This document shows positions 2,890 to 40,307 of a DNA stretch of 41,008 nucleotides, piece by piece. Position numbers and translations under genes: made by a program. The notes below the pieces were generated by a model that worked only from the letters and a program-made list of their open reading frames with translations, did not search any database and was not told where the DNA came from. Within the stretch, counting starts at the first letter, position 1; each line of letters starts with the position of its first letter. Origin of the DNA: a virus; the IMG/VR virus record IMGVR_UViG_3300027494_000001, positions 1 to 41,008 of that record; one strand, written 5' to 3'.

Positions 2890-3126
2890 TCAGCAACGCT
2901 CGACACTGCACAGCGCTTTCGCTCCGGCGTCGTTTGTTGCGTCCGCCTCATTCTCCCAGATCAGCAGTCGGCCATGCTCCCACTCACCTGTCACCAGCTC
3001 GTTCGCGTCGTATCCATAGGCAGCCAGCAGCACCTCAGCGTGGATGGCAGCCTCGGTGTCGTTTTTCATTGTGCCCAGCAGTTCGGTTTCGTTGCCGGAA
3101 GTAAATCGGATGGTGTATTCGCTCAT
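2890..3126 (-). CDS. hypothetical protein
   Basis: 78 aa from ATG 3126, preceded by GATTGAGGGAACGAACA. The track start at 3141 lies in the leader. Confidence 0.55.
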   Translation of the reverse strand: MSEYTIRFTSGNETELLGTMKNDTEAAIHAEVLLAAYGYDANELVTGEWEHGRLLIWENEADATNDAGAKALCSVERC

Positions 3127-3191
3127 TGTTCGTTCCCTCAATCTCGTTTGTCGTTGTCCCGCGTGTCACACTGCGTGACTCGCATGGTGGG

Positions 3192-17343: not shown

Positions 17344-18273
17344 TCAGGTGAACGTGGTCAAAACCGCGTTCCACCATGCGCCGTACCCGATGTTGTATCG
17401 TGCGTAGGTGCCCATCTGCAGCTGCTTCATGTTCATGTCCTCGGCTCCCTGCACGTTAGCGGTCAGGGATTCGCGGGGCTGAAAAATAAATGGTCGCAAT
17501 GGCACGTCAACACGCAGAAGATACCACTTCGCCGCATTGCTCAGATGCGTGCTCATGGCGACGGCTGGCGTGTCCAGCACAATGTTGGTGCCGCCGCTGT
17601 TGTTGAGGATCTGATTGAATGCCTTCTTGGCAATCGTTTCCAGTGCTCGCGGGACAAGCGCGACAAACTGCATCCCGGAATTCAGCCCGGTAATCACGTC
17701 CTCGTGCAACGGTTCGCCGTTGTCGTCCTTGAATCCCATCATCGCGCTTCGGGCTGCTTCGTAACTGCCCAGAAACTCGTCAATGGTTGGAGTGGTGCCG
17801 GTTGCCGCAGCGTAGGTCAAATCGTTGTCCTGGCTGCCGCTGTTGCCCCAACTGTGGTCAGTGTCGAAAAAGAACTGCCCATCGAAACACTGCGTGCTTT
17901 CGCCGTTCACGATCGCACTCATCAGCAGTTTGTCGGGATGTCGTGCGGCTCGCTGTGCCAGTGTGGTCAACGCGCCGTCATACAGCCCCAAACGGTCGTC
18001 CGCAACGTCCTTCTTCTCGATCTCCAGCGAACCTTCCCACTCTTTGTTTGCGAGTGTGTAGGTCGCCCCGCGCAGCTTGTTGTAAACGCGGTCGCCGAGG
18101 TACTCGCGAATGGACGGCATGGCACCGAGGATGCCATACTGCTCATCTGCACCATCGGACGGAGTCACGGTACAAATTGACGGATAGAAGGTCTGCACAG
18201 CAGACGCTTCACGGTTGAACTTCGCGGTGAGTGCTCGGCTTGCCGCGATTGCCTTGGCAGTATCAAGTGCCAT
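17344..18273 (-). CDS. major capsid protein, Mu gpT-like family
   Basis: 309 aa. GAMPSIREYLGDRV ... AARHPDKLL ... CFDGQFFFDTDH ... YARYNIGYGAWW matches the conserved blocks I know from Mu-like gpT major head subunits. Confidence 0.85.
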   Translation of the reverse strand: MALDTAKAIAASRALTAKFNREASAVQTFYPSICTVTPSDGADEQYGILGAMPSIREYLGDRVYNKLRGATYTLANKEWEGSLEIEKKDVADDRLGLYDGALTTLAQRAARHPDKLLMSAIVNGESTQCFDGQFFFDTDHSWGNSGSQDNDLTYAAATGTTPTIDEFLGSYEAARSAMMGFKDDNGEPLHEDVITGLNSGMQFVALVPRALETIAKKAFNQILNNSGGTNIVLDTPAVAMSTHLSNAAKWYLLRVDVPLRPFIFQPRESLTANVQGAEDMNMKQLQMGTYARYNIGYGAWWNAVLTTFT

Positions 18274-18959: not shown

Positions 18960-20096
18960 TCAGGCTTTGTTTGCGTGCTTCACGTACTCATCTTCGCTCA
19001 TGCCGAACGTCATGCCGCGTTTCTGCAGGTCCGCAAACTCGGCCTTCAGCCCGGAATGCGGGTCGCTTTCCTGCGGTGTGACGGATGCCGCCAACACGGG
19101 ATTTCGCGCAACCACCAACGCACTCAATGCGGCTTGTGTCTGCTCCACGCTGAATCCAGCATCCACGAACGCATTGAATTTGTCGCCGGCTCCAGCCAGA
19201 TCGCACAACGCTCGGATCTGTTTGCACCGCAGCCGCTCGACCTGTGCCAGGTCTGCGGTTGCCGCCTGAACCACTTCCGGCTGCACGTCGACTGCTGACA
19301 GATCCGCAGCAGGCTGAACCGGTGCCGGTGTCTCTGATTCTACCACGTCCGGTGTCTGCGTCTCCGTAGCCATCGGGGTTCCTTTCGCACTAAAATAGCG
19401 GTCCAAAAATCCTGCAATGCGTGCCCGGACCACGTCAGGCGTTGCATCAGTAAAATAGGTGTCCAGCAGTGCGGTTGCCTGTGCTGGCAGGTTCCGCAGG
19501 TCCGCATCTGCCAGACTGAACAGCCCGGTTCGCGTTGCGGCTGGCGTGTCAACCACGTCCGCCGCTCTTAGTCTCGCGAATCGCATCGGCCACCGCGCTG
19601 CCTTGCGGTCTGCCGGTGCCATGTCTGGCAATGCGTCCTGCCACTGCTGTAGATTTGATTCGTCCAGTGCCGTCGCGATGCTCACGCCGAAGGCTTCGGG
19701 ATCTTGTTCGGCCATGTCCAGAACATACGTTCCCAGATCGCCCTGCGGACTCGTGAATGCCGCATCTGCAATGTGCAGATCCGCTCGAACGGTGTCGCCG
19801 TCCAATCGGAAATTCGCCCACCTGCCCAGATACGAACCCATGCCGTCATTGGACATATTCGGATGCGTGAATCGGGCTTTGATGCCGCCACGGGACGATT
19901 GCCCGAAGTCCACCACCTGCTGCAGTGTCTGCATGTCGGCTGTCCACGGTCGCGCATCGCCTTCATTCAGGATTCCGGCCTGCATGATGGACGCGCCGTA
20001 AATGACATTGCCCTGACGGTCTACGCGCTGTGGTGCGGTGCGTGATGCGTCCGTCCGGAACATGCCTGCAGCGGGTGCTGTGTCAATTTGTGGCAT
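18960..20096 (-). CDS. prohead protease / scaffold fusion
   Basis: 378 aa from ATG 20096 (GAGGG nine nt upstream). The N-terminal half has IKARFTHPNMSNDGMGSYLGRWANFRLDGDTVRADLHI, like the His region of HK97-type S78 proteases. The C-terminal half is acidic and helical, like a scaffold. Confidence 0.55.
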   Translation of the reverse strand: MPQIDTAPAAGMFRTDASRTAPQRVDRQGNVIYGASIMQAGILNEGDARPWTADMQTLQQVVDFGQSSRGGIKARFTHPNMSNDGMGSYLGRWANFRLDGDTVRADLHIADAAFTSPQGDLGTYVLDMAEQDPEAFGVSIATALDESNLQQWQDALPDMAPADRKAARWPMRFARLRAADVVDTPAATRTGLFSLADADLRNLPAQATALLDTYFTDATPDVVRARIAGFLDRYFSAKGTPMATETQTPDVVESETPAPVQPAADLSAVDVQPEVVQAATADLAQVERLRCKQIRALCDLAGAGDKFNAFVDAGFSVEQTQAALSALVVARNPVLAASVTPQESDPHSGLKAEFADLQKRGMTFGMSEDEYVKHANKA

Positions 20097-22071
20097 TGGC
20101 TTCATCCCTCGCTCGCATTTGTTTCTGAACCTTGCCGGCCCATGCCTGCCCAGGATCTCCGCCCCACAGTGCCCACGCAATCCGACCGTTTGACGGATAG
20201 CCCGGTTCACCCTGGCTGAATCCCTCGCCCTGTTTGTCAACCTCGTGACGTGCAAAGAACGAGACCATGCGGTTGATGGTGCTTGGGCTGACAGCTTTCC
20301 CGTTGCTCAAGTCCCGTGCTCTGGCAACGCCAACAGCAGTGCCACCACGCTTGTACTCGCGTCGCCATTCCAGGCCTTGGCGTGCTTCATCCCTGACGCC
20401 TTGGGGCGGTCTGAATTCGATGCCGGCATATTTCTTCGGGGTCGCCAGCATCGCAATGCGGGCATTCTGGCCCATGTCTGTCGCGTCGTCTGTGTTGTCC
20501 GTGTCGTCCTCTGTGTCCTGCGTGCCGTCCAGCCCTAACGATGCCCGATAGGCTGCCACGCGGGCTTCCATGTCGGCCTTCACCAACTGCTCACGCTCGA
20601 TCTGCTGCAAAGTCTCGTCAAAGTCCCGACCACGCGCCGCCAGTGATTCCGTCTGCGTCGTCAGACCTGCAGAGATTGCTGCAACGTCTGCCTTGACCTC
20701 TTTTTCCGGGTCAACCCACGGCCAGCCGGGTGGAATCCATTGATGCTGCAGGAAATGGTCTCTGTTTTCTTCGTAGGTGATTGCATCAACTGGCAACAAA
20801 CCTTGCATGACAGCCCTGTCAATGAATCGGCCCCAGACCTTGCGCAACACCTGTTCAATCAGACAATACTGCCAATTTTTGAACGTGATCCGGCCATCAA
20901 TCAACGCCAACCGTCCGCCGCTGAAATTGTTCGTGAACTGCTTCGCCAGCAGTTCATACGGATACCGCAAGGCAGCCGCAACGCCGTGCAAGGCCCATTC
21001 GACATACGGCCCCAGCGTCGTTCCTGGTCGTGCCGGGTCGCTGAACTGGACGCCTTCACCATCGGCCAGATATTGAATGGTGCCGGGTGCCAAATCCTCA
21101 AGACTGCTGCGCCCAGCCAATCGGCCAGACTGTGCCATCGTTGTAGGATCTGTGACACCCGTAATAAACGCCCCGTAACATGCTGCCACCTGCTCGGCCA
21201 CAAGGTGCGCGTGAACGAAGTCCTTCAGATCCTTTAGCTTGCCCATTGCAGGGGACAGCCACGGGACGCCTCGCAATTGCCCAGGCGTCAGTTCTTCGTA
21301 GCAGTGCAGCAGGTCCACCAAACTTACTTCGTCCTCTTTCACGTCCACCTGCCATGAATCGTACGGCAGGCTGCGTCGAACGAACGCCGCAATCGGCTTG
21401 TTATTATTGTCCAGTCTCAAACCCAGTCGCCGGCGTTCGTTTGCCTGCATCCGGCTGTACGTGATGACCGGAATTCTGGACGGGCTGATGACTTGCACCG
21501 TCAACGTAACGGGCTTTTCCGGATTCGCATCGTCGGCCATGTGTAGCCACGATTCGCCGTAAATCGCGTTGCACCGTTCCAGCATTCGCTGCTTCGCGAA
21601 AAACTGCTCGGATTCTGCCCACTTGGCAAAGTACCACTCCGACATTACGCGGAATTCCTCCGCCTGTCGCGGTGTCAGAATTCCACGCTCAGCCTGCACT
21701 CGGCACTGCGGACGAATGCCGGTCCCAATGACGTTGTCCACACGTCCGTTAATTGCTGACGCCGCAAACACGTCGTTCCGATACAGATCGTTGGCGCGGT
21801 CGATCAACCGCTCCAGTTCGTCCTGCAGCTGGTCGTTGCTGGTGTTCTTCGGGGTGATCCAGTTTTCCCCGCGTAGACGATCGTTGCCCGCCGCTTCGTA
21901 GGCTGCGAAATTGTCAGCAGCCCGTGCCGCCAGCATCATCCGCAATTCATGGTCAACACGCGCCTTCACCCGGCCTGCAGCCCAGCGCGGGGAGACTCGC
22001 TGAATGACGGAATCCAGCCGCGTGTACTGTGCAGCGGACTTCACGCGGTCGGCATAGTTTGGCTGGCTCAT
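20083..22071 (-). CDS. portal protein, lambda gpB family, with an extra C-terminal domain
   Basis: 662 aa. YEAAGNDRLRGENW...LERLIDRANDLYRNDVFAASAINGRVDNVIGTGIRPQ matches the lambda-family portal N-terminal signature. ATGA-coupled to the gpW-like gene. Confidence 0.85.
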   Translation of the reverse strand: MSQPNYADRVKSAAQYTRLDSVIQRVSPRWAAGRVKARVDHELRMMLAARAADNFAAYEAAGNDRLRGENWITPKNTSNDQLQDELERLIDRANDLYRNDVFAASAINGRVDNVIGTGIRPQCRVQAERGILTPRQAEEFRVMSEWYFAKWAESEQFFAKQRMLERCNAIYGESWLHMADDANPEKPVTLTVQVISPSRIPVITYSRMQANERRRLGLRLDNNNKPIAAFVRRSLPYDSWQVDVKEDEVSLVDLLHCYEELTPGQLRGVPWLSPAMGKLKDLKDFVHAHLVAEQVAACYGAFITGVTDPTTMAQSGRLAGRSSLEDLAPGTIQYLADGEGVQFSDPARPGTTLGPYVEWALHGVAAALRYPYELLAKQFTNNFSGGRLALIDGRITFKNWQYCLIEQVLRKVWGRFIDRAVMQGLLPVDAITYEENRDHFLQHQWIPPGWPWVDPEKEVKADVAAISAGLTTQTESLAARGRDFDETLQQIEREQLVKADMEARVAAYRASLGLDGTQDTEDDTDNTDDATDMGQNARIAMLATPKKYAGIEFRPPQGVRDEARQGLEWRREYKRGGTAVGVARARDLSNGKAVSPSTINRMVSFFARHEVDKQGEGFSQGEPGYPSNGRIAWALWGGDPGQAWAGKVQKQMRARDEANATN

Positions 22072-22360: not shown

Positions 22361-22558
22361 TCAACTGCCCGAAATCACCGTCTTAAACCTATTGCCACAC
22401 GAACAGGCCCGGTGCTGAATTCGCACGCCGTCTGTCTCGTGGCTGCAGTAGGCCGTCGCGAATTTGCCGCATGACGGACACATGCCGAACCCCGGAACAG
22501 CGTGCCGCGGTGTGTATTCTCGCCGTTCTGTGTATGCGGGGCTTTTTGGCGGTTTCAT
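22361..22558 (-). CDS. Zn-ribbon protein (Ogr/Delta-like C-x2-C ... C-x-C)
   Basis: 65 aa, ATGA-coupled to the TerL stop. Contains MCPSCGKFATAYCSHETDGVRIQHRACSCGNRFKTV. Confidence 0.4.
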   Translation of the reverse strand: MKPPKSPAYTERREYTPRHAVPGFGMCPSCGKFATAYCSHETDGVRIQHRACSCGNRFKTVISGS

Positions 22559-24582
22559 CGCAGATTCCTCACGAATTTCTGTGCTTTTTTACCCGAAATC
22601 ACGCCTTTTGCAGCCTGAATTTCCGCCTGCCGCTGCCTCTGAGATTCTACCGTGTCGCTGTCGTAACGCAAAATCGACAGCCCGACAAACGACAGATACG
22701 CCGCGTCCAGCAGGTGGTTGCGCGTGAATGTCTGCTGCCACTTCGTCACAGATCCTTTGCCGACCTCAAACGCTGTGACCTCGCGTTCTGCGGTCAACTG
22801 TTTGGCCAATTCAATGCGGTGCTCTGGCTGATCAGTCGCCGGCAGCAACAATGCCTGCGGAGATTCAACGGGAACGCTCAACGCCTGATGTACTCTACGC
22901 TTCCACAGGTCCGCGTTGTTCTGGTATTCGCGATAACGTCCGGCAGATCCGGTGCACAGCACGTCATGCCAGCCCTCACCTAGTTTCACCGTGATTTTTG
23001 AGCGGTCCCGCGGTGCGTTGTAAACCTGCCCGAGGTGCTGCTTGAATCCAAAACCCTTGCTGGTGTTCCACAGGCTGTGTTGAGCGGCTTCCTCGCGGAT
23101 GATGTCGGTCTCCCAACCGGCGTCAATCAGAACAATGTCTGCCGACCGATTGCCGCTATCGGATTGCCACCCCGAATCGAACTTTTCCTGCAGCAGTCGG
23201 ATAGCCTGCCGAAGTGCGGTTTTCAGGTCCGCCAGATCTCGCTGCACTGGCTCGAAACCGTAATCAATACAGATCGGCTGTCCGTCCCGCTGCTCCGCCG
23301 TGACGAACCAATCCAGTTGTGCCGCTCGCACGTCCACGCCTGCAGCAATGCGAACAGTCTCCGGCGGGATCTGTCCACGCCGGTAATCGCTCTGGCGGTG
23401 CATGATCGTCCGGAAGTCCAGCGGTTCGACGGCCTGCTCCTTCGGCTGTGCCGGAAGTGCCCACGTCCACTGCAGCAACTCCCGCTCACTGTTGTCCGCG
23501 TCGATTTCTCGCTTTCCTCGCCATTCATCGGCCCCGACAATTGCCGCAGTCACAAACGTATTTGTGGCTGCCGAGTATCTGAACCCCATTGTTTTTGTTG
23601 CCGGTATGTCGCCGGTGACAATGCCGGCGGAATCAATGTGCTGCCCGCGGTGTCGGAGTTTTGCACGCTGAAGCATCTCCCGCCGCTTCGCATCATCGAA
23701 CAGCCACCCGCATAACGGACAGGCCCATCGGCTGTTGGCTTCCGCTTCTGCCTCTGACTGTGCCTCTTGCCAGCCGTGAAGGTGCTCACGACTCGGACAC
23801 ACGTAATCTCCGCAGGAGTCGCACGGGAAAACCACCTCGCCCGCGGTCCCGTTCTGGTACTCCTGCCAGATCCGGCCATCCTCGACGGTCACAGTTGATT
23901 CCAGGTAAATCCTCGCCTGCCCGCTCGCTCGGTATGCTCGAACGCGACCCTCCATCTGCTTCAGCTTAGTGGCTTCGTCAGACTTGCCACCGACTTCATC
24001 GAGATGTGACACCTCAGTCACCACCAGCACAGGCCCGGTAAAGCCGGCGCGCTTTTCGTCACCACCGCCCGCTGTAATGAATTTCAGGTTGGCCCCGTTT
24101 GTAAACTGGATCAGCTCCGGAGTGCTGCCACGGCTGCCGGCTCCTCTCCGCGGCAGAAATCGCGCGTATTGGCTGGCCTCGATTGCCGGTTTGATGTCCA
24201 GCTGCCATTTGTCGTTTGCCATCTCCATTGACGGCAAGCCGAACAGCACTGTTTGCTGTCGCTCAAACAAGTGATAGAGAATCGGAACCACAACGAACGC
24301 CAACGTCTTGCCTGACTGCTGCGGACCCGTGCACGCAAACCGGAAGAAATTGCCAGCGTCCACGGCGTCGAAAAACAGCCCATGCGCCGGCTGTCTGTTG
24401 CACCGAAATCGCTGTCCCTGAAACGGCCCATCAGGCAGGATGATTTCGGATTCAGCGAACTGGCGAAGGCTCCGAAATGGTCGGATGATCACATGCCGCC
24501 GGAAAATGTCAGCCAACGCTCGCCGGCTCGTTTTCGCGTATTCCGTCCACGGTATCGTATTCGGCGGTGTCTGCATGTGCAT
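22555..24582 (-). CDS. terL: terminase large subunit, lambda gpA family
   Basis: 675 aa. Walker A is TGPQQSGKT. It also has a gpA-type N-terminal block (FAESEIILPDGPFQGQRF) and an internal Cys cluster (CDSCGDYVCP ... CPLCG). Confidence 0.85.
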   Translation of the reverse strand: MHMQTPPNTIPWTEYAKTSRRALADIFRRHVIIRPFRSLRQFAESEIILPDGPFQGQRFRCNRQPAHGLFFDAVDAGNFFRFACTGPQQSGKTLAFVVVPILYHLFERQQTVLFGLPSMEMANDKWQLDIKPAIEASQYARFLPRRGAGSRGSTPELIQFTNGANLKFITAGGGDEKRAGFTGPVLVVTEVSHLDEVGGKSDEATKLKQMEGRVRAYRASGQARIYLESTVTVEDGRIWQEYQNGTAGEVVFPCDSCGDYVCPSREHLHGWQEAQSEAEAEANSRWACPLCGWLFDDAKRREMLQRAKLRHRGQHIDSAGIVTGDIPATKTMGFRYSAATNTFVTAAIVGADEWRGKREIDADNSERELLQWTWALPAQPKEQAVEPLDFRTIMHRQSDYRRGQIPPETVRIAAGVDVRAAQLDWFVTAEQRDGQPICIDYGFEPVQRDLADLKTALRQAIRLLQEKFDSGWQSDSGNRSADIVLIDAGWETDIIREEAAQHSLWNTSKGFGFKQHLGQVYNAPRDRSKITVKLGEGWHDVLCTGSAGRYREYQNNADLWKRRVHQALSVPVESPQALLLPATDQPEHRIELAKQLTAEREVTAFEVGKGSVTKWQQTFTRNHLLDAAYLSFVGLSILRYDSDTVESQRQRQAEIQAAKGVISGKKAQKFVRNLR

Positions 24583-25116: not shown

Positions 25117-25189
25117 GTTTCTCATTTTTGAGAAACCTGCCAAAATGGCAGGTTTTCTCATTTGTGAGAAAACCTGCCATTGTGGCAGC
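25117..25189. repeat. tandem ~36-bp repeat, each unit forming two hairpins
   Basis: Unit 1 is 25117-25152 and unit 2 is 25153-25189. The hairpins are gtttctca-tttt-tgagaaac, cctgcca-aaa-tggcagg, ttttctca-tttg-tgagaaaa and ctgcca-ttg-tggcag. T-runs follow the GC hairpins on both strands. Confidence 0.7.
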
Positions 25190-25191
25190 CA

Positions 25192-25548
25192 TTACACTGT
25201 TGCCACTTTGATCTTGACCCGCGCCTGCTCAGTGCCTGCCACCGTCGTGAATGTGATCCTCAATGTGGTCGTTTGTTCGTCATCATCGCTCCCCGCTGTC
25301 CCTCCGGACAACGTGAAACTGATCCCGGTGTTCGCCTCGATCGTCACGGGGTTTCCGTATTGGTCATAGTCGCTAGTGTCAGCTGATAACACGGTCGCTC
25401 CGCTGATTGTCAGGGATGCGTCAGGGCTGGTCACGCTGGTAACGCCTGTGATCGTCCGGCCCTTGATTGCTTCCCCCAAATCCACGTAATATGTTTTGGA
25501 TTCGCCGGTGTAATGCAGCAGCACTTGCCCATCAATGCAACACGTCAT
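25192..25548 (-). CDS. hypothetical beta-rich protein, fibre-module member
   Basis: 118 aa from ATG 25548, ATGA-coupled. Thr/Ser/Gly-rich. Confidence 0.5.
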   Translation of the reverse strand: MTCCIDGQVLLHYTGESKTYYVDLGEAIKGRTITGVTSVTSPDASLTISGATVLSADTSDYDQYGNPVTIEANTGISFTLSGGTAGSDDDEQTTTLRITFTTVAGTEQARVKIKVATV

Positions 25549-25763
25549 CTCCACGGCCCTCCATTCACGATTCTGCCTCTGTGCTCAATGGTCGCTGTCC
25601 TGCTCCGCGTCCCCAGTGTTGCCACCCTCGTTCTGTATTCGACTGCCACACCGTCACGGGCTGGCTGTGGTGACGGCGTAACGCCAGAATCAGCAAGCGC
25701 CCTTCCAGCCGCCCTCCAACCCTGCTGTGCAAACCCCCTGAATATGAATCGTCCTGTGCTCAT
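25545..25763 (-). CDS. hypothetical protein
   Basis: 72 aa. ATGA-coupled at its start, and its stop overlaps the next start. Confidence 0.4.
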   Translation of the reverse strand: MSTGRFIFRGFAQQGWRAAGRALADSGVTPSPQPARDGVAVEYRTRVATLGTRSRTATIEHRGRIVNGGPWR

Positions 25764-32364: not shown

Positions 32365-32591
32365 CTGAATTCCCTCGCACAGACGTGAAAGAGAAAAATG
32401 GCCCAAAACGGTAGAAATTCAGTGTAGTGGTAGACCCTATAGGAATTAGGGAATTTACTCTTAATCATGTATATAAAGCTGGATATTTACTAGACTTACG
32501 ACGCCTCTCTGAATTCCCTGGCGTCAGGGAATTCAGCGGAACTCAGACTTTTCCGCTCGCTGAATTCCCGGAATTCAGGCTGAATTCCCTG
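32365..32591. promoter_or_regulatory. iteron-like CTGAATTCC(CTG) repeats flanking an AT-rich stretch (candidate origin or operator region)
   Basis: Direct copies lie at 32365-32375, 32509-32520, 32560-32570 and 32580-32591. Inverted copies lie at 32525-32536 and 32570-32578. Copies 32509-32520 and 32525-32536 form a perfect 12-bp palindrome with a 4-nt spacer. The segment from about 32380 to 32500 is visibly AT-rich. Confidence 0.55.
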
Positions 32592-32604
32592 ACGTTCTTG
32601 GAAC

Positions 32605-34782
32605 TCACAGACCTGTCGACGTGTACACCGAAACCCGCTTGCCGTTCGCCTCGACCTGTTCATACGTACAATCTCCGGCAGTCTGCAAATCCTGCAAGAT
32701 GTCCAGCCGCTGTTTCGGCGTCAGCTTGCGGGTGCGTCTGGTAATCTCTGTCAGCGTCCACGGCTCGCCTGGACGCTCTTGGAGCAGTCGCCTGACCTGC
32801 AGGACCAATTTCCCGTACTCGCTGCCTGCAACGTGTCTGTCGGCCCCTCGCAGCATTCTGCGCGTCAGCCAGTTGTTCAAGCGAATCGCCAGATCCGCAT
32901 CCGCCAAACGAATGACCGGCCATTCCTGCCCGGTGCACCGACTGCAGGCAAACAGCAACGCCAGCTTGTTCGTTTTTTCCGCGGCTCGGCTCCATATCGC
33001 CGACCTCACCGGGTCCTCTGTCATCCGTCGCTCACTGATCTCGACGGTGTGCTGATGCAGTCTCTGCTGTGCCTGTTCGTCCCTGTCCACTCGCCGCGGA
33101 CTGGCCCCCGGAGGATTGATGTCTGACAGATTGCCATCGCCTCCGGTGTCGAGATCCAGCCACCACCGCGCACGCGCGACGATGTCCGTCGGCACGTCCA
33201 CCCATTCCGGCTCCTGATAATGGACGTACCCCGGACTTTCAAAAACCAAACACCTGCCGATCAAACCGCCTTTCAGGTTGTGTTCCGTCAGCTCGCTCCA
33301 GAAATCTTCCGGGCAGGCTGTACCGTAAATAATCGCGTGCGGGTACTCCAATTTCTTGACCTTTTTCACGTCGCCGTAGGCGTCCGAAATCCACTCCGAA
33401 TCGGCACTGGAAAACAACTGCATCAGCACGGCAGAAATCTGTACCAGATGCGGACTGCCCTTGTCCTGCATCGCCATCACGAGGTGGGCGATTTCGTCCA
33501 ACTGCCACAGCGTCCGCCAGTGCTCCGCCATGCGTGCGATGATCCCGGCATGACTGCCCACACGCTCCGGCCCAACTGTATCGGCGTGTCCGGCTTGCCG
33601 CAGAATCAGACGGTTGATTTTCCTGCCGTGGTCTTTGCCAGACCCGGACAACGCCAGCCCTATCACATACAGGTTGGTGCGTGTCCTGACTCTGTCGATC
33701 ACCTTGCCCGCCGTCAGTGTGCTCATCAACGCCAGTGCTGCCGCCAGTGCCAGTTCTGGCAACGGATAGTGTGCCGTTGCCAGATTGTGCCGGACAACGT
33801 CACCAATCAATCCGGGGACCTCCAGCAACTCCGGTGGCAGTGCTGATTCAGGATCAATTTTCCGCGGCTCTTTTGAAGGCCTCGGTGCGACAAACGCGGA
33901 CAGATCCAACCCAGACAAATCAACACGCTCCACCGGCAGTTTATCGGCTCGTGGCTTGCCGTTCGTACGTGCGCTCGCAATCGCTCGGTGCAGTTCGTCG
34001 TCAGGCAATGGCGATGCGTTCCGACTGTTCCAGACCGCCATCAATTCGTTGACCTGATCCGGTGCCAACCGTTGCCCGCCGCCATCCGTGAAGGCCCAAA
34101 GATTGCCCGCCACCCGGAAGGCTTTGTTGTTCCGCTCGCCCTCACTCGCTGGTTCCACGGACTGCATCCACGCTGACGCTCGCTGCATCAATGCGTCCGG
34201 CTGTACCATTGCCGGCTGCTGCGCCTTTTTGCCGGTTGCTGCAGGTTTTTGCGGCTTCGGTTCCGGTGCCTTCTGGCTCAGGTACTCGGAACACAACCAA
34301 TCTATGACGGCCTGCCCGTCTTTGATTTCATCGCACCCTGCGTACACCTCGCCTGTAATCGTCCAGAATCGGGAGTGGTCATAGCATTCAATCTGCTGCT
34401 TGCCCTCGCCGATTTTGTGTGTGCACCTGCTGCCGTCTGGCTTCCGTGCTCGGGTGATGAATTTGATGCCGAGACCACTCGGGCTGACTTCGCTGTAGCT
34501 GACCTCAGACAGTTTTGCGACCAGCTCCCACGCCCACGGCTTCAGGCTGCCGTTGTCCTCAAGACAGCCGTCCAGATCGACGCCGCAATACGGCTCTTCC
34601 AAAAATGTCGCGATGCGGTCGAAGTGCTCGACCGTTTCAAACTCTGCCCATGTGCTCGGGTCATTGCTTTTAGCTGCGGTGCCGGTTGCCTGTGTGGGCA
34701 TTTTGGTACCCTTGACCAGCTTCCAGCAACACCACCTTTTCAGGGCGGTCAACTCCGTCGGTACTCGCCTGTAATGATCCAT
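32605..34782 (-). CDS. AEP-type primase (prim-pol) fused to a DUF3987-like NTPase/helicase
   Basis: 725 aa from ATG 34782. It has the GVDLDGC (DxD) and EVSPSGLGIKF motifs and ECYDHSRFWTITGE in the N-terminal part. The C-terminal part has NLYVIGLALSGSGKDHG (Walker A) in a DUF3987-like context. Confidence 0.75.
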   Translation of the reverse strand: MDHYRRVPTELTALKRWCCWKLVKGTKMPTQATGTAAKSNDPSTWAEFETVEHFDRIATFLEEPYCGVDLDGCLEDNGSLKPWAWELVAKLSEVSYSEVSPSGLGIKFITRARKPDGSRCTHKIGEGKQQIECYDHSRFWTITGEVYAGCDEIKDGQAVIDWLCSEYLSQKAPEPKPQKPAATGKKAQQPAMVQPDALMQRASAWMQSVEPASEGERNNKAFRVAGNLWAFTDGGGQRLAPDQVNELMAVWNSRNASPLPDDELHRAIASARTNGKPRADKLPVERVDLSGLDLSAFVAPRPSKEPRKIDPESALPPELLEVPGLIGDVVRHNLATAHYPLPELALAAALALMSTLTAGKVIDRVRTRTNLYVIGLALSGSGKDHGRKINRLILRQAGHADTVGPERVGSHAGIIARMAEHWRTLWQLDEIAHLVMAMQDKGSPHLVQISAVLMQLFSSADSEWISDAYGDVKKVKKLEYPHAIIYGTACPEDFWSELTEHNLKGGLIGRCLVFESPGYVHYQEPEWVDVPTDIVARARWWLDLDTGGDGNLSDINPPGASPRRVDRDEQAQQRLHQHTVEISERRMTEDPVRSAIWSRAAEKTNKLALLFACSRCTGQEWPVIRLADADLAIRLNNWLTRRMLRGADRHVAGSEYGKLVLQVRRLLQERPGEPWTLTEITRRTRKLTPKQRLDILQDLQTAGDCTYEQVEANGKRVSVYTSTGL

Positions 34783-34794
34783 CTCCAACGCTCC

Positions 34795-34842
34795 AAAGAA
34801 AAACCCACTACAGACGAGATGCGACCTCGCCTGTAGTGGGTT
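34795..34842 (-). terminator. strong rho-independent terminator
   Basis: Minus-strand RNA forms a 17-bp stem (34802-34818 with 34826-34842, one G-U pair) and a 7-nt loop, followed by UUUUUCUUUGG. It lies 93 nt after the stop of the upstream gene and about 12 nt before the primase ATG. Confidence 0.8.
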
Positions 34843-34934
34843 AAGTCCGGCAACGCTGCCGGGTGAATCAATTGGGTGGCAGTGTCGCATACCGCCACGC
34901 GCATCTTACCACGCGCATCCGCGCGGGTCGATCA

Positions 34935-36101
34935 CTATTCCTCAATCAATCGCGATGCAATCTGAGGCAGAAATTCCAGCACGGAAACAGCCAATATGCT
35001 GCTGTCGTCGGGATGATCTGCCACCACCTCCAGCACTGGACGCAGCCACGTCTGCAGCCGATCCAGCGCTCCCGACAACTGGTTGCGATAACGCTCGCGT
35101 TCCAGCGTCAACGCCCGCACCCGCTCCCGCAACTGCTGCAGTTCGGCGTTGGGCTGCTCGATGCGTCGCCGGTAAGCCCCGCAGCGCATTCGCGGCGTGT
35201 CACCAAATGCCTTCGCCGGCACCCATCCGCCCAGTGTGTAGTCCATGCGCGACCATCGCACGTCGCCCTGCGCGATCACTTCATCCGGCCCGAGATCACG
35301 CCAGCCCGGCCCGCTCGGGTCGTCTGGTGCTGACTGCTGCCCGATGCGTCGGCGCACCACGTCGTCGTCGGTCACTGTCTCACCAGGCTCCGCCGCCACC
35401 CATCGTCCGAGGGGAAATTCGTCGTCCGCGCGAACCATGTCGCCGTCCTGCGTAACGCCGCCGGTCGTCACATCACGCCATCCCGGCCCGCTCGGGTCGT
35501 CTGTTGTTGGCTGTGTCTGTGGCTCGATCGCTCCAGCCAACTGGTTGCGGTACCGGTCGCGTTCGCGTGTCAGCGTCTGGACCTGCTCTTTCAGTTGCTC
35601 GATCTTGCTCGCTTCGCCTGCGACTTGTCGCCGCGACATTTCCGCGAGATGCTGTGAGGTTGCCAATTGCTCCCGCAACTGCTGCAGTTCGGCGTTGACC
35701 TGCTGGCCTGATCGATCGGCCTCGGCCAGCAGCACCTCACACTCTGCCAGCCGTCGCCGCAGATCGTGCACAGTCTTCGGCTTGCTGTTGCTCGGCTTGC
35801 TGTTGCTCGGCTTGCTGTTGCTCGGCTTGCTGTTGCTCGGCTTGCTGTTGCTCGGCTTGCTGTTGCTCGGCTTGCTGTTGCTCGGCTTGCTGTTGCTCGG
35901 CTTGCTGTTGCTCGGCTGCTGTTGCTCGATGCGTCGGCGGTATCCAGTACCGTATCGGTACGATTTCGTGCCAGCGTTCTGTGTCGCCTCCCAGCGATCG
36001 ATTCTCCAGAACATATCGCCGACCTGCAAGACCTCATCCGGCCCAACTTCCCGCCAGCCCGGCCCGCTCGGGTCGTCTACCTGTGTCTGTTCCTTGCTCA
36101 T
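34935..36101 (-). CDS. repeat/coiled-coil protein with three DDPSGPGWR modules and an (SNSKP)9 linker
   Basis: 388 aa from ATG 36101 (MSKEQTQVDDPSGPGW...). It is a paralog of the gene at 36470-37000 and shares its C-terminus: WLRPVLEVVADHPDDSSILAVSVLEFLPQIASRLIEE. Confidence 0.7.
   Translation of the reverse strand: MSKEQTQVDDPSGPGWREVGPDEVLQVGDMFWRIDRWEATQNAGTKSYRYGTGYRRRIEQQQPSNSKPSNSKPSNSKPSNSKPSNSKPSNSKPSNSKPSNSKPSNSKPKTVHDLRRRLAECEVLLAEADRSGQQVNAELQQLREQLATSQHLAEMSRRQVAGEASKIEQLKEQVQTLTRERDRYRNQLAGAIEPQTQPTTDDPSGPGWRDVTTGGVTQDGDMVRADDEFPLGRWVAAEPGETVTDDDVVRRRIGQQSAPDDPSGPGWRDLGPDEVIAQGDVRWSRMDYTLGGWVPAKAFGDTPRMRCGAYRRRIEQPNAELQQLRERVRALTLERERYRNQLSGALDRLQTWLRPVLEVVADHPDDSSILAVSVLEFLPQIASRLIEE
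35781..35915. repeat. perfect 9 x 15-bp tandem repeat (gcttgctgttgctcg)
   Basis: Counted directly: nine identical units, followed by a degenerate 14-nt copy at 35916-35929. In-frame on the minus strand it encodes (SNSKP)9. Confidence 0.95.
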
Positions 36102-36103
36102 CG

Positions 36104-36466
36104 TCACACCCTCCAAACAAACACCGCGTAAAACCGGACGGCAAACCACATGGCCCACCGCCTCCACCTGCCCACACCAGCCCTTCGCAGCATCATCAGA
36201 AACACCGCATCGGCAACCATACGATCCTCGGGCGTCTCGCTGCCCTCACACAGTCGATCATGCCAATAGGACGCCTCACGCACGTCTGCCGCCAACGGGT
36301 GGCCCATGACAGACCATGCCCAGCGGGGAATACTGGCACCGTCCCAACTGCTGCCGACGTCCTCGGGCCGTGATATGTGCACGCCACCCGGCAGCATATC
36401 ATGCGCGATGTACTCGACAAGAAATGCCAACCGCTCACCCTCGAGGCACACTGGGGAATCTGCCAC
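36104..36466 (-). CDS. DUF1353-family protein
   Basis: 120 aa. GTG start with an AAGGAG Shine-Dalgarno site. WDGASIPRWAWSVMGHPLAADVREASYWHDRLC matches the DUF1353 signature (DGASIPR ... HD). Confidence 0.65.
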   Translation of the reverse strand: MADSPVCLEGERLAFLVEYIAHDMLPGGVHISRPEDVGSSWDGASIPRWAWSVMGHPLAADVREASYWHDRLCEGSETPEDRMVADAVFLMMLRRAGVGRWRRWAMWFAVRFYAVFVWRV

Positions 36467-36469
36467 GCC

Positions 36470-37000
36470 TCACTCCTTGATCAATCGCGATGCAATCCCC
36501 GGCAGATACCCCAGCACAGCCACGGCCAGCGGGCTGGCGTCCTCGGGATGTTCTGCCACCAGTTCCAGCACCGGCCTCAGCCACGCCTGCAGTCGATCCA
36601 CAAGTTGCGCCTGCGCCTCCGGTGCATTGCTGTGCTCGATCGCTCCCTCAAGCTGGTTGCGGTATCGATCGCGATCCATCGTCAATGCTTGGACCTGCTC
36701 CCGCAACTGCTGCAGCTCGGCATTGACCTGCTGGCCGGATCGCTCGGCCTCAGCCACCAGTGCCTCAGCCTCCGCCAATTGTTGCCGCAAATCCGGCTCG
36801 CTGTCGCTCGACTGCTGTGGCTCGATGCGACGGCGGTAGGTGCGCTCATCCACCGCGGGCTGCCCTGCGTGCTGTGTCGCCTGCCAATGATCCACGTTCC
36901 AAAACAGATCGCCATGCCGCAACACTTCATCCGGCCAAACATCCCGCCAGCCCGGCCCGCCCGGGTCGTCTGCCTGTTGTGTTTGCTGCTCACTGTTCAC
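36470..37000 (-). CDS. DDPGGPGWR-module coiled-coil protein (short paralog)
   Basis: 176 aa from GTG 37000, which overlaps the upstream stop and has GGAGGAAGG upstream. It has one module, a coiled coil and the same conserved C-terminus as 34935-36101. Confidence 0.65.
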   Translation of the reverse strand: MNSEQQTQQADDPGGPGWRDVWPDEVLRHGDLFWNVDHWQATQHAGQPAVDERTYRRRIEPQQSSDSEPDLRQQLAEAEALVAEAERSGQQVNAELQQLREQVQALTMDRDRYRNQLEGAIEHSNAPEAQAQLVDRLQAWLRPVLELVAEHPEDASPLAVAVLGYLPGIASRLIKE

Positions 37001-37296
37001 TTGCCTTCCTCCATCTGAATCTGTGGTTCTGCCGCTGCAAACTCCGCGGCAACCTGCCACGTGTTTCGCGCGTCGTATCCGCTGTTAATCAATGCCAAAG
37101 CAAACCGCCGTGTCAGTTCTCGCCGTTCCTCCTGCTCCGGCGTGATGCTCGCGTCGGACCACTCGCCGCAGAAATTTTGGTCGTCCGTGTATGGGCGTTG
37201 TCCATTAAGATCAATGGGGGGATGCCTTTTGCATGTGCCATGACCTTTTTCCAAATGATTCCACCACCTGCAATGCATGCACCATCGCTCTGTCAT
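36997..37296 (-). CDS. small Cys-rich protein
   Basis: 99 aa from ATG 37296, with GGAGGG seven nt upstream. MTERWCMHCRWWNHLEKGHGTCKRHPP...NFCGEW is a four-Cys pattern. Confidence 0.5.
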   Translation of the reverse strand: MTERWCMHCRWWNHLEKGHGTCKRHPPIDLNGQRPYTDDQNFCGEWSDASITPEQEERRELTRRFALALINSGYDARNTWQVAAEFAAAEPQIQMEEGK

Positions 37297-37317
37297 CGTC
37301 TCACCCTCCAAAAAACA

Positions 37318-39069
37318 TCAAAACGGACAATCTTCACCAAACTCATTCACCGCCGTTGTCAGTTCCCGAATCATCGTCGGCTTTTCTTCGCTGAACTCAG
37401 CCTGCACGATCCTGTCCCACTGGCCCTCCCTTTTCACCAACAGCCTTGACGGCTTCCGTGCTGATCCGTGATTGAGGGCGGTAATTGCCTCCGCCACGCT
37501 CGCCGGGAATGGGAAAACAGATCTCGCATCCCACCACGCAAACGCCTTCTGCAATGCAAATCCTTCATGCTCGAAGCAGACCCATTCACGCACCACAATC
37601 CAGCCGAGATTGCCCGCGGGCATGGTGTCGTCGCTGACGTAGTACGACACGCATAGCGTCGGCGGTTTGCCCGGTGTGTTCTTCTTTGCGTGCAGATGCC
37701 AATTGACTTCTTGCACGTCGTACCATTGCGGCTCCAATTCTCCAACGATGCTGCTCGTGGTGTCGATCTCGTCGCCGTGTCTCGGTGTCCCGTCCATCTG
37801 CCGGACAAACAGATGCCCGCATTCACTGCACTTGACGGCGGAAAGATACACCTCCTGTTTGCACTTCGGGCAGACTTTTGACGGTGCCTCAGAACCGTCG
37901 GAATTGCGTGGCTTGCTGATGCCGTAATCGTCCGCATCGAGTGCCCCGTGCCGTTGCAGGTTGCCGCCAAAGTCCAGAATCAGACAGTCTGTTTTTCCGT
38001 CTGCAATCCGAAGGCCACGGCCCACAATTTGAGCGAACAAACCGGGTGACATTGTGGCCCTCAGGACGGCCACCGCATCAATCCCGGGCGCGTCAAATCC
38101 TGTTGTCAGCACGTCCACGTTGACACACCACCGCAGACTGCCGTTGCGGAAGTCGCTCAACACACGCTGACGTTCGATCGCGTGAGTCTCGCCTGTCACC
38201 AATCCAACCTCCTGCCCCGTCAGATCCCGCAGGGCAAGTGCCACTTGCTCGGCATGACTCACACCGGCACAAAATACCAGAATGCTTTTGCGGTGCTCGC
38301 AGGCGATTGTCAACTCACAAACCGCTGCGTGAATGATTGCGTCCGTCGTAAATGCGGCTTCCATTTCCGCTGCCACGAACTCACCGCCACGGATCTTGAC
38401 GCCCTGCAAATTCGCCTGGCTGTCTGCCGGATTGTTGGTCAGTTTGGACAGGAAACCGGCCTCAATCAACGCTCCAGTTTTGGCCTCATAGCAAACGCCG
38501 CTGAACAACTTGCCGTCATCTGCCAACGATCCCTCACCCGTGCGGTATGGTGTGGCGGTCAGTCCCACGCAAAACAACCTGCGGTTGTGTCGCTGAAGTC
38601 CGTCGAGGAACTGCCGATACATGCTCCCGCCGTCGTCGCTAATTAGGTGCGCTTCGTCGATCACCACCAGACCACGCTGCCCGAATTCCGCTGCGTCCCG
38701 ATACACGCTCTGAATGCCGGCACATATCACTGTGCTGTCGATGTCCCGCTCATTCAGTCCTGCAGAATTGATCCCGACCTTTAGCCCGGTCAGTCGCTGA
38801 ATCTTGTCCGCGTTCTGCTGCAACAGTTCTTTGCGATGTGCCACCACCAGTACCCGTTGCCCCCACTCAACTGCCTGCCGGATCAGCAACGCAATCACGA
38901 TCGACTTGCCTGCTCCCGTCGGCAACACGATCAGCGGATTCCCTCGTCCGTCGCTGATGTACTGCCATGCTGCCGCATTCGCTTCCGATTGATACCATCT
39001 CGCTTCCACCGTCACTTCCCCTCCCCGCAAAACACCCGGCAGCGTTGACCGCTGCCGGGTCTCGAACAC
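37318..39069 (-). CDS. DEAD/DEAH-box SF2 DNA helicase with an internal Zn-ribbon
   Basis: 583 aa, GTG start. It has LPTGAGKS (Walker A), VIDEAHLI (DEAH), GLTATP and a helicase-C region, plus CPKCKQEV...CSECGH. Confidence 0.8.
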   Translation of the reverse strand: MFETRQRSTLPGVLRGGEVTVEARWYQSEANAAAWQYISDGRGNPLIVLPTGAGKSIVIALLIRQAVEWGQRVLVVAHRKELLQQNADKIQRLTGLKVGINSAGLNERDIDSTVICAGIQSVYRDAAEFGQRGLVVIDEAHLISDDGGSMYRQFLDGLQRHNRRLFCVGLTATPYRTGEGSLADDGKLFSGVCYEAKTGALIEAGFLSKLTNNPADSQANLQGVKIRGGEFVAAEMEAAFTTDAIIHAAVCELTIACEHRKSILVFCAGVSHAEQVALALRDLTGQEVGLVTGETHAIERQRVLSDFRNGSLRWCVNVDVLTTGFDAPGIDAVAVLRATMSPGLFAQIVGRGLRIADGKTDCLILDFGGNLQRHGALDADDYGISKPRNSDGSEAPSKVCPKCKQEVYLSAVKCSECGHLFVRQMDGTPRHGDEIDTTSSIVGELEPQWYDVQEVNWHLHAKKNTPGKPPTLCVSYYVSDDTMPAGNLGWIVVREWVCFEHEGFALQKAFAWWDARSVFPFPASVAEAITALNHGSARKPSRLLVKREGQWDRIVQAEFSEEKPTMIRELTTAVNEFGEDCPF

Positions 39070-39084
39070 CTCAACACACAGCCA

Positions 39085-39549
39085 TCAGCCCCACGGATTT
39101 GCGGGATTGCTTGCGGTTGGTGCCGCGTAGGATGTCTGCGTCATCGGCTGATCGCTCAACCTCTTCGGGCTGTATCCTTTGACCTTGTTCGTCGGCTCGC
39201 CGTTGTACTCGCCGTGGGCGACTGTCACGGTCAACAGCCGATTGTGCAACTGCTGACTATCGGAGATGCTAGCCAACCCGACGGCGTCCATGATCGCCTT
39301 CAATCGCTGTTTAGCAATCTGCCCAGCCGTCCCTGCATGACGGATGCAAAGATTGTCCCACAACTTCGCGCCGCTGAACTGTGGATGTCCCTGCACCTGC
39401 AGGACCAATTCCAGCATCGCGGCCCCGCCGGACTTCGGGATCTTCATTCCGCTCTCGACAATCACCGCTTGATAATCACCCTCAGGCAACAGCCGCCGTA
39501 CAGGCTGCGCCTGCACGTTGTTCATGTCCAGATCACTGAGATTCGCCAT
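39085..39549 (-). CDS. DUF669-family protein (phage SSB-like)
   Basis: 154 aa from ATG 39549 (MANLSDLDMNNVQ...). A GTG at 39558 is the alternative start. LPEGDYQAVIVESGMK... is typical of DUF669, and it is adjacent to the Sak4-like gene. Confidence 0.55.
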   Translation of the reverse strand: MANLSDLDMNNVQAQPVRRLLPEGDYQAVIVESGMKIPKSGGAAMLELVLQVQGHPQFSGAKLWDNLCIRHAGTAGQIAKQRLKAIMDAVGLASISDSQQLHNRLLTVTVAHGEYNGEPTNKVKGYSPKRLSDQPMTQTSYAAPTASNPANPWG

Positions 39550-39554
39550 TGTTA

Positions 39555-40307
39555 TCACCCTTTCACTTCTGAAGAAACACCACTGATACAGTTCACATAA
39601 TCAACCCACCTAAACCCAATCTCACCGCCTTCGATGTTCAGCCGATTTTTCGCCAACGCTGTTGGCGTTTCGGTACAGCGGATGTATCGCTCGCCGGCAC
39701 CACTGGCAATCGTCCGCTCCTTGTTGAATCCCTGATCCTCCTTGCGGGTGTAGATTCGATAGCTTGCGAAAAACACCTCGTCACACCACTCCTGCAGCAG
39801 TGCTGATGCCGTCTCGTGTAGTGCAGGCTGAAACCTGTCGTATGAATCCGCGCCCGGATCTTGATGTCGCCGAATCGCACAATGTGCCAGCAGGATGATT
39901 CCCATCCCTTGCGTGCGCCGCAGCACGTCCAAATCATCAATGACTTGATCCCACAACGCCATTGCTGACTTGTACCCCGCCCCATAGGGAATATCGCTGA
40001 TGTGTTTTTTCGATGCTCGATCTGCCACATCCTGATGAATCAACGCCTCCAGCCAATCGACGGTGTCGATCGCCAATGACTTGAACCCGTGGTCAGGATT
40101 CGCGAACAGCCAACTCAGCGCACCCTTCACGTCTGCGTATGTCCGCAGATGCTGAGTCTTTGCCGTGTCGATGTCGTTCAACCCGTCCTCAAGATTCAGG
40201 AACAACACGTCCGGTGCCTGTGCCGCCCATGACGATTTGCCGATGCCGTGTGTGCCGTACAGCATCACACGTCTCGGCACCACCGTTTTACCCCTCGTAA
40301 TCTTCAT
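39555..40307 (-). CDS. Sak4-like AAA_24 ATPase (RecA-fold recombination protein)
   Basis: 250 aa. VMLYGTHGIGKSSWAA (Walker A) ... LAIDTVDWLE ... IILLAHC gives the AAA_24 block order. Confidence 0.75.
   Translation of the reverse strand: MKITRGKTVVPRRVMLYGTHGIGKSSWAAQAPDVLFLNLEDGLNDIDTAKTQHLRTYADVKGALSWLFANPDHGFKSLAIDTVDWLEALIHQDVADRASKKHISDIPYGAGYKSAMALWDQVIDDLDVLRRTQGMGIILLAHCAIRRHQDPGADSYDRFQPALHETASALLQEWCDEVFFASYRIYTRKEDQGFNKERTIASGAGERYIRCTETPTALAKNRLNIEGGEIGFRWVDYVNCISGVSSEVKG

Follow-up and report, generated by a model that had tools for sequence, protein, structure and literature searches.

The DNA analysed in this work is IMG/VR virus record IMGVR_UViG_3300027494_000001 over its whole length of 41,008 nucleotides (hereafter, the window), which is the genome of an uncultured siphovirus-like phage lineage with the minus strand as coding strand for every gene. 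We focused our attention on four genes occupying the slot between the genes of an SF2 DNA helicase and a primase (Table 1), which encode, from upstream to downstream, a 99-amino-acid (aa) four-cysteine protein (C), a 176-aa module protein (modA), a 120-aa DUF1353 protein (D) and a 388-aa module protein (modB); modA, modB and their relatives are referred to as M proteins. The four minus-strand open reading frames (ORFs) were recovered at the coordinates given in an earlier note, made from the DNA letters alone, and the location that it had assigned to them, a non-structural region inside the replication operon (Sak4, SSB, SF2 helicase, primase and RusA), was likewise borne out. An independent gene caller applied to a near-identical ENA contig (L108) returned products of 99, 176, 120 and 353 aa, where the difference between 353 and 388 aa is due only to the number of PSNSK repeats, the rest of modB being identical. 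The genes are as tightly coupled as had been described, with the C stop and the modA start overlapping in GTGA, a gap of 3 nt between modA and D, and one of 2 nt between D and modB.

Plan, variation and distribution of the module proteins

Searching with a hidden Markov model (HMM) retrieved the copies of a ~55-aa module that had been read from the translations, one in modA and three in modB, at E values from 7e-28 to 3e-17. The isolated modA module was modelled by AlphaFold2 as a small all-beta domain of 4-5 strands, with a predicted local distance difference test score (pLDDT) of 87.1 and a predicted template modelling score (pTM) of 0.70. In the full-length modA model, beta strands within residues 18-58 are followed by helices at 71-123, 127-150 and 157-175, that is, by a single 53-residue helix and then a two-helix hairpin. 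The 292 modA homologues found are metagenomic, and are either unnamed or carry meaningless automatic names. All 120 homologues listed share a common plan, in which the short conserved leader MxxEQQTQQA is followed by one to three modules, then by a coiled coil and finally by a near-invariant C-terminus (WLRPVLExVAEHPxDxSxLAVxVLxxLP(G/Q)IASRLIEE); over the M proteins as a whole, the number of modules ranges from 0 to 4, and the modules are followed by conserved acidic linkers, the coiled coil and the conserved helical hairpin. The coiled-coil and C-terminal blocks reported as common to modA and modB are present as DNA repeats with 77-84% identity (repeat families D2, D4, D5 and D6). M proteins are acidic, with an isoelectric point (pI) of 4.64 for modA, a family median of 4.79 and a net charge of -4 in the modA module, which is more in line with a role as protein binder or decoy than with DNA binding. 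A C-terminal membrane anchor was considered and rejected, the best 19-residue hydropathy being 1.40-1.47 and the C-terminus of the type-II homologue being hydrophilic (NPNLANETLQHLPQIMRHLTGL).

Two kinds of repeats were found in the linkers. A 20-mer occurs exactly at 35305-35324, 35482-35501 and 36058-36077, as previously listed, along with the copy carrying one mismatch (Table 1); no further match was obtained at up to 3 mismatches, and 0 are expected from 100 shuffles. Moreover, the linker after module 1 of modB holds a perfect, in-frame 15-nt tandem repeat that was absent from the earlier note; PSNSK, the peptide encoded by it, is present in 9 copies in the window, 2 in L108 and 2-7 in other family members, a variation that reflects either a variable-number linker or assembly collapse.

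We then looked at the variation among modules. A set of near-invariant positions (DDPSG-GWR, V14, E18, G23-D24, W32, G39 and YRRRIE) is accompanied by ~30 or more positions with an entropy of ~3 bits and by indels in two loops, and 130 of 150 modules are unique. Sorting at 60% identity gives at least 27 module types, and each of the common ones was found with either C-terminal allele, LPG as well as LPQ; therefore, heads and tails reassort freely. The two paralogues of the window carry non-overlapping module types and different C-terminal alleles (Table 1). Within a module type, the ratio of nonsynonymous to synonymous substitution rates (dN/dS) is 0.25-0.32, with values of 0.06 for the helicase and 0.14 for DUF1353, so that the types are maintained, functional alleles and not the products of hypermutation. 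A diversity-generating retroelement was also discarded as the source of variation, as no reverse transcriptase family was detected when 26 ORFs of the window, including all those of ~300 aa or more, were compared with PHROGs, and variation among the modules consists of discrete alleles with indels and not of point changes. Overall, the module cores are old, discrete alleles under purifying selection that have been shuffled at conserved linkers. The suggestion that the duplications are recent or homogenised is thus only partly upheld: the linker DNA does look homogenised, given its low codon diversity, but the duplications are not simply recent. The codons GAC GAC CCG AGC for DDPS are used in 46, 46, 40 and 44 of ~46 independent instances, with a similar picture for YRRRIE and PSDSEP, and codon diversity at amino-acid-invariant codons is 0.19-0.26 in the linkers, the helicase and the M C-terminus having values of 0.34-0.49 and 0.38, respectively.

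Cassettes of other kinds use the same junctions. In P0083 and P0084, an HTH_3 cassette (32 bits, cut-off 23) sits between the same DDPSGP/SDSEP linkers, before or after the beta module. In addition, a ~60-aa helical cassette with two cysteines (IDHRQCVxALQQIAQLADTG...) occupies the same junctions, and a second, unrelated beta cassette of ~65 aa ((V/I)QVxEGRWRTRxGxIRNVTPTP...WWDAxYRQTW...GRYY...DLVxYLGPIE) was found in slot genes of L068, L069, L074 and L076 and in P0024, sometimes twice; neither of these has a Pfam match.

The remark that the module could be placed in no known family held throughout, for the C protein as well, in Pfam, PHROGs, NCBIfam, PADLOC, PDB profiles, Foldseek against PDB and BFVD, and GenBank phages. 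Pfam gave nothing better than E = 0.15 on 40 modules and matched no repeat model to 143 distant module proteins; with M proteins, PHROGs, NCBIfam and PADLOC returned sub-threshold coiled-coil matches only, and a PDB sequence profile search with the M profile had no match. Foldseek searches of PDB with the full M model and the isolated module gave E > 2 in all cases, and a search of BFVD with the module yielded uncharacterised phage proteins only (E 0.2-0.5). No relative was found among GenBank phages, either by megablast with 8 kb or by tblastn with modB, DUF1353 and a generic protein of nine modules; a scan of GTDB genomes with the M alignment found nothing, and a literature search on the module found no account of it. 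Nevertheless, when the module profile was searched against 1.84 billion representative proteins, with clustering at 50% identity, 587 clusters were matched at E <= 1e-3, 119 of them with E <= 1e-10; in its more general form, the repeat reads (P/G)xGYRLLxxGExIxxGDE...W...G...YRRK. Module arrays reach nine copies, in proteins of up to 942 aa, and in a few distant members the module is fused to DUF3310 or stands N-terminal to dGTP_diPhyd_N, AAA_5, Peptidase_M28 and, once, DUF1353. With 587 clusters and such varied fusions, the module is therefore a widespread, unnamed add-on domain; having no Pfam model, it represents a sizeable portion of viral dark matter, for which naming and testing have now become possible.

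Only 2 genomes among 185,579 species representatives contained a degenerate DNA pattern built for the generic module, both of them Verrucomicrobia metagenome-assembled genomes (MAGs). On a 159-kb contig of a Verrucomicrobiaceae MAG (L113), a lone 64-aa single-module ORF at 6638-6832 is flanked by a Cys-rich ORF of 93 aa on one side and, on the other, by an ORF of 755 aa that looks terminase-like by eye alone. As a weak lead, this arrangement suggests a prophage, and that Verrucomicrobia host phages with the module family; the uncultured phage group may infect these bacteria.

The slot in related phages and the C and DUF1353 proteins

Relatives of the locus were gathered by using the helicase as anchor, thus avoiding selection for the module, which resulted in 80 IMG/VR loci; slot contents were counted in ~27 distinct contigs with helicases 83-95% identical and sufficient downstream DNA. 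M was found in the slot before the primase in every one of these contigs, C in ~22 and D in ~12, so that the company of module proteins and DUF1353, noted earlier for this genome, recurs outside it. The gene orders observed were DCM, DM, CM, M, CMDCM, DMCM and DCMCM. M is the constant resident of the slot, C a frequent member and its common partner, and D an optional one. The helicase itself is 93-95% identical across dozens of IMG/VR contigs, and this near constancy next to such varied contents identifies the slot as a recombination hotspot. Moreover, the primase beside the slot occurs in two allele classes, 96-98% and ~61% identical to that of the window (loci L016, L025 and L026 versus L001, L011 and L012), with the helicase staying at 93-95%; therefore, a mosaic boundary passes through the slot. 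Accessory hotspots in phage early regions are an already known phenomenon, and a slot between a 94%-conserved helicase and a primase is well suited, as a clean natural experiment, to the discovery of accessory genes in this uncultured phage group.

In a clade with 78% helicase identity, the slot holds a single divergent gene of the same plan, with its own leader and 0-3 modules (PPEGWRVL...YIRRIEP); its coiled coil is long, and the hairpin at its C-terminus is hydrophilic (EWLEPIRxVDNPNLANETLQHLPQIMRHLTGL). Two members, L072 and L083, are module-less. In more distant relatives the slot is empty (113 bp in L080, 19 bp in L099) or has an HNH gene. C and M are also found together in an unrelated PolA/Toprim-type phage (L003) without the SF2 helicase. 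An expanded slot was found in L015 (6900-11000), which contains a YegP/DUF1508-like 93-aa ORF and a 172-aa ORF with an HD motif, as well as an inverted C gene and one more C gene in forward orientation. The M leader and linker are represented in it by a remnant of 25 aa, also inverted, and a protein of 147 aa combines a module with HTH_3 but is without coiled coil. At the level of whole genes, a 23-nt sequence, TTTGGAGGGTG(A/T)GACGATGA, including the ribosome-binding site (RBS) and start codon, was observed at 36098-36120 (before modB) and 37293-37315 (before C), the two copies being 91% identical, and the upstream peptide context LEG(E/V)TM also precedes C genes of other contigs. This RBS/start junction may represent a gene-level boundary sequence for cassette exchange.

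The C protein has 78 homologues, all metagenomic and unnamed, and gave no family match in Pfam, PHROGs or NCBIfam. C6, C22 and C43 are invariant and C9 nearly so; the motif CGEW(S/A)D-SITPEQ and the helix ELTRRFAVAIMS are further conserved features, and the mosaic parts are the loops between the cysteines and the C-terminal third. To judge from its sequence, C is probably a small metal-binding (Zn) domain followed by a conserved helix.

D matched PF07087 with 58.5 bits (cut-off 22.5; E = 5e-16; residues 38-110), PF07087 was present in 60 of 60 full-length homologues, and H69, D70 and D86 as well as the DGAxIP motif are invariant in a 28-sequence alignment of the window protein and 27 homologues. 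The earlier statement that DUF1353 has no known function is outdated, as TtaP, a 125-aa member encoded in the typhoid toxin islet of Salmonella Typhi, has been experimentally shown to be a phospholipase A2 (PLA2), with an activity that needs D85 of an H70/D85 dyad and for which D71 is also important (PMC11525133). The same work described TtaP as a group-XIV-like PLA2, and its structural link drew on HMM-HMM comparison (PMC11525133). H69, D70 and D86 of D correspond, by position and motif only, to the catalytic His/Asp residues H70, D71 and D85 of TtaP, and the two proteins share the PF07087 match, the size class (120 vs 125 aa) and a His-Asp pair with a downstream Asp. Nevertheless, D is found in a phage replication operon and TtaP in a toxin islet, and D also differs from other DUF1353 proteins in lying outside a tail or lysis region. 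When D (by phmmer) and the 28-sequence D profile were compared with PDB sequences, nothing was found up to E = 10, the group XIV PLA2 structures 1LWB and 4AUP included. By these sequence criteria, D is a new member of the known DUF1353/TtaP-like family in an unusual genomic context, and a candidate TtaP-like PLA2. In phage KIRK, the DUF1353 gene lies between head-tail joining and tail-fibre genes (PMC7924643), and we rejected the PHROG label "tail assembly chaperone" (phrog_1158) for D, as it reflects gene position in other phages and no tested function. In the literature retrieved on DUF1353, a function was given only in the TtaP paper (PMC11525133), and the presence of a TtaP-type phospholipase-like gene in a replication operon is a context outside earlier discussion of the family. 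Two fusions, a metagenomic module-DUF1353 protein (P0171), whose linker resembles intergenic read-through, and a DUF1353-C protein (P0403), may be read-through gene calls.

Possible roles of the module proteins

The reading we favour, with a confidence that falls a little short of even, is that M works as a recombination-shuffled multivalent binding adaptor residing in an accessory hotspot. The coiled-coil stalk would oligomerise M, and the C-terminal two-helix hairpin would be its constant end, either capping the stalk or binding a constant partner. One to four N-terminal beta-barrel-like modules of ~55 aa would act as specificity heads, presenting hypervariable strands and loops on the scaffold DDPSG-GWR ... 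GD ... W ... G ... YRRRIE and joined by presumably flexible acidic Pro/Gln-rich linkers, one of them with the variable-number PSNSK repeat. Homologous recombination, which the DNA-level conservation of the linkers suggests as the route of exchange, would swap, add and delete heads, and even insert unrelated cassettes such as HTH_3; it could be carried out by the phage's own Sak4-like annealase, encoded together with SSB two genes upstream of the cassette region. Such exchange would retarget M with its stalk unchanged. The window would then carry two adaptors, modA and modB, with C as the usual upstream, translationally coupled partner of M, perhaps also in physical terms, and D as an optional TtaP-type PLA2-like payload. 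The targets of the modules may be host or competitor factors, which would imply host takeover or counter-defence. Of the roles proposed by the earlier note (host takeover, anti-defence or replication), all are compatible with these data, which do not narrow them decisively to one.

If the modules are indeed specificity heads, the locus would represent a natural system for protein retargeting by domain-cassette exchange, and M would define a new class among the early proteins by which phages take over the host or counter its defences. A bolder version would see in the locus a combinatorial binder repertoire, where at least 27 interchangeable mini-domains, together with HTH (helix-turn-helix) and other cassettes, would be kept by the phage lineage as a library spread over its population and be shuffled by homologous recombination at DNA-conserved linkers onto a constant coiled-coil stalk. 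This would allow the innate, antibody-like retargeting of an early effector, directed at competing phages or at host defence proteins that vary, with the module as a large unnamed domain family of phage proteins. We regard this version as rather doubtful, although it would be highly interesting if true.

Several observations weigh against the adaptor. Nothing ties the M family to defence or counter-defence: in PADLOC, C and D had no match, and M had only sub-threshold coiled-coil matches to LmuB and JetC (E >= 5e-4). M is present in every close relative and is not patchy as many anti-defence genes are, a core-gene-like behaviour that also fits a role in replication specificity. Inside module types, purifying selection was detected and no signature of ongoing positive selection. 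The excess of synonymous conservation in the linkers is modest, with few codons behind the figure. Lastly, the evidence for a partnership of C with M is their adjacency, allele association giving no signal among just 15 unique pairs, and C is missing beside the M-like genes of the clade with 78% helicase identity.

Comparison with known systems gave partial likenesses. Phage mosaic genes shuffle at short conserved boundaries, e.g., in tail-fibre and lambdoid module exchange. M resembles them in its discrete diverged cassettes, its short DNA-conserved flanks, the observation of all combinations, and the presence of a Rad52/Sak4-type annealase nearby; it differs in that 55-aa domains are exchanged within an early cytoplasmic protein, instead of whole genes or receptor-binding tips, and in that unrelated folds, HTH_3 included, use the same junctions. 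To our knowledge, neither domain-level cassette exchange inside an early cytoplasmic coiled-coil protein nor the module family has been described earlier. Ocr, ArdA and T7 gp5.9, acidic dimeric early phage decoys or DNA mimics, serve here as a lead only: M shares with them expression from an early/replication region and strong acidity, and may share an elongated helical oligomer build, but no homology was found by any search, and those proteins are without repeated beta modules or cassette shuffling. The order of parts in M also recalls TIGR04211 ("SH3_and_anchor", with a small beta-barrel, a coiled coil and a C-terminal anchor), to which modB gave a weak coiled-coil match; nevertheless, its 24.7 bits are far under the 65-bit cut-off, the module is left uncovered, and M has neither a signal peptide nor a convincing membrane anchor.

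Alternatively, M could be a replication-specificity factor, origin-binding or replisome-organising, following the logic of lambda O, with heads that recognise phage DNA or the replisome and a C-terminus that recruits helicase or primase. We consider this unlikely, and yet it stays alive because M is found in every close relative and because HTH cassettes occur. As in lambda O-type initiators, a replication-operon gene encodes a protein with variable N-terminus and constant C-terminus, universal in close relatives yet variable; moreover, M is encoded between helicase and primase, M or M-like genes are present in every relative with helicase identity >= 78%, the C-terminal type shifts together with the helicase clade, and no other initiator candidate was identified in the operon. 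The HTH_3 DNA-binding cassette can replace or join modules, and distant module proteins are fused to DNA-metabolism enzymes. Unlike lambda O, to which it has no sequence or fold similarity, M is acidic, as are its modules; there are 1-3 M genes per phage, with repeated, freely shuffled heads, and some relatives are headless. The iteron array and DNA-binding N-terminal domain of such initiators were not found, as HTH_3 is limited to rare variants and no iteron array lies near the cassette, where the four 20-mers, with distances of 177-893 bp, owe their recurrence to the linker sequence that they encode. In addition, the slot is empty in L080 and L099, and a phage whose replisome is wholly different (PolA, Toprim, no SF2 helicase) shares the C-terminal type. 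The acidity of M and the spread of C and M to that phage argue against a dedicated origin-binding role. The HTH_3 cassettes of P0083 and P0084, as well as the stalkless 147-aa module-plus-HTH protein of L015, could likewise be taken as a sign that M proteins are oligomeric regulators of the transcription or immunity type, whose heads bind partners or operators and set strain-specific immunity between co-circulating phages. M is, like immunity determinants, universal in close relatives yet hypervariable, and a conserved, promoter-like, structured element follows the last M gene. Nevertheless, most M proteins are acidic and without recognisable DNA-binding domain, no operator-like repeats were found near the cassette, and no integrase or repressor, nor any hint of a temperate lifestyle, was seen among the part of the ORFs that was scanned; we hold such a regulatory role to be improbable.

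D could also be the centre of the unit, as a PLA2-type enzyme that acts on the host membrane to exclude superinfecting phages, to time lysis or to bring about abortive killing; M and C would then regulate, inhibit or target it. The PLA2 activity of TtaP (PMC11525133) and the invariance of H69, D70 and D86 are in agreement with this possibility, as are the position of D between both M genes, with translational coupling, and the module-DUF1353 fusion in P0171. The linker of that fusion, however, looks like intergenic read-through, M has no membrane anchor (maximum 19-residue hydropathy of 1.40; hydrophilic type-II C-terminus), and in other phages DUF1353 is found among tail genes (PMC7924643; phrog_1158). 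Moreover, ~15 of the 27 related contigs have M but no D, and D is lacking throughout the clade with 78% helicase identity; with D missing from over half of the relatives, a DUF1353 membrane system is unlikely to be the core function, and we give this explanation little credence. Finally, the data all come from metagenomic assemblies, and the tandem-repeat copy number differs between assemblies in a way that short-read collapse could produce, so that the repeats might represent assembly or annotation artefacts, or decaying selfish DNA without function. This is very hard to reconcile with ORFs that are intact in hundreds of independent contigs (JGI, ENA, Logan and NCBI collections), with purifying selection inside module types, with a module fold predicted with high confidence and with conserved start/stop coupling, and we assign it hardly any weight.

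The downstream intergenic element and other features of the window

The terminator described as the strongest of the genome, which closes the cassette, has the longest stem among the terminator-like sites scanned over bases 1-41008. As in intrinsic (Rho-independent) terminators, its GC-rich hairpin is followed by TTTTTCTTT, and the hairpin is kept in 10 loci. It is part of a conserved structured element between modB and the primase (Table 1), with 32 predicted pairs, 6 of them showing compensatory changes in the 10 loci. Within this element, a conserved stretch of ~130 nt has a direct repeat, GATGCGCGTGG, present twice around a TAAGAT/TAGGAT box, and two or three hairpins ahead of the strong terminator. 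The box could be part of a promoter (TCGACC-17-TAAGAT, 8/12 matches), and the element as a whole could encode a ~100-nt phage small RNA or work as a leader/attenuator for the primase; Rfam had no match to the cassette or the intergenic element. As the terminator falls within the first 36 codons of the longest primase ORF, this ORF probably begins too early, and the likely start is its M37, at position 34782; on L108, the primase was called as 725 aa.

Table 1. Coordinates of the features discussed in the text
Feature	Position	Strand	Basis
Sak4-like annealase	39555-40307	-	library matches
SSB-like protein	39085-39558	-	library matches
SF2 DNA helicase, upstream flank and anchor of the variable slot	37318..39069	-	Pfam ResIII, Helicase_C, DEAD; phrog_16 1.5e-93
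C, 99-aa four-cysteine protein	36997..37296	-	ORF list
modA, 176-aa module protein: one beta module, coiled coil, C-terminal hairpin allele LPG	36470..37000	-	
modA beta module, residues 8-62, type 2	36815..36979	-	HMM E 6.7e-28
Linker 20-mer encoding DDPGGPG, one-mismatch copy	36951..36970	+	
D, 120-aa DUF1353 protein, TtaP-like candidate phospholipase A2	36104..36466	-	PF07087
modB, 388-aa module protein: three modules, two coiled-coil blocks, C-terminal hairpin allele LPQ	34935..36101	-	
modB module 1, residues 6-61, type 0	35919..36086	-	HMM
15-nt tandem repeat, 10.2 copies, PSNSK x 9 in the linker after module 1	35777..35928	-	Tandem Repeats Finder, 99% matches
modB module 2, residues 198-256, type 5	35334..35510	-	HMM
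modB module 3, residues 257-317, type 26	35151..35333	-	HMM
Conserved structured intergenic element modB/primase: hairpins, then terminator	34785..34934	-	10 loci
Intrinsic-terminator-like hairpin, 19-bp stem, TTTTTCTTT T-rich tail	34802..34842	-	
Primase / primase-helicase, downstream flank	32605..34782 (longest ORF to 34890)	-	phrog_3022 4.9e-68; PriCT_1
Terminase	22555-24582	-	library matches
Portal	20083-22071	-	library matches
Major head protein	17344-18273	-	library matches
Tape measure protein	12053-13555	-	library matches

Just past the primase stop, at 32505-32595, three copies of CTGAATTCCC(T/G)G were observed with spacings of 51 and 20 nt, one of them within the palindrome CTGAATTCCCGGAATTCAG; the cluster is a candidate for an operator, an origin or a terminator. 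Far from the replication operon, at the other end of the genome, 3258-5644 encodes a second SF2-type helicase (phrog_62) followed by a DNA methyltransferase. Close to it, at 2498-3152, lie three repeats of TCGTTCCCTCA(A/C)TC with a spacing of 312-326 nt, and a GC-rich hairpin (AATCCCCCG...CGGGGGAAGGTGT) accompanies two of the three positions, a pattern suggestive of a small gene or terminator unit that has been duplicated in tandem. Short palindromic repeats, TTTCTCATTTTTGAGAAA and AAACCTGCCAAAATGGCAG, were also found twice each at 25118-25188, with a spacing of ~36 nt; they are intergenic, immediately downstream of the ORF at 25192-25554, and precede the block whose last gene encodes the terminase.

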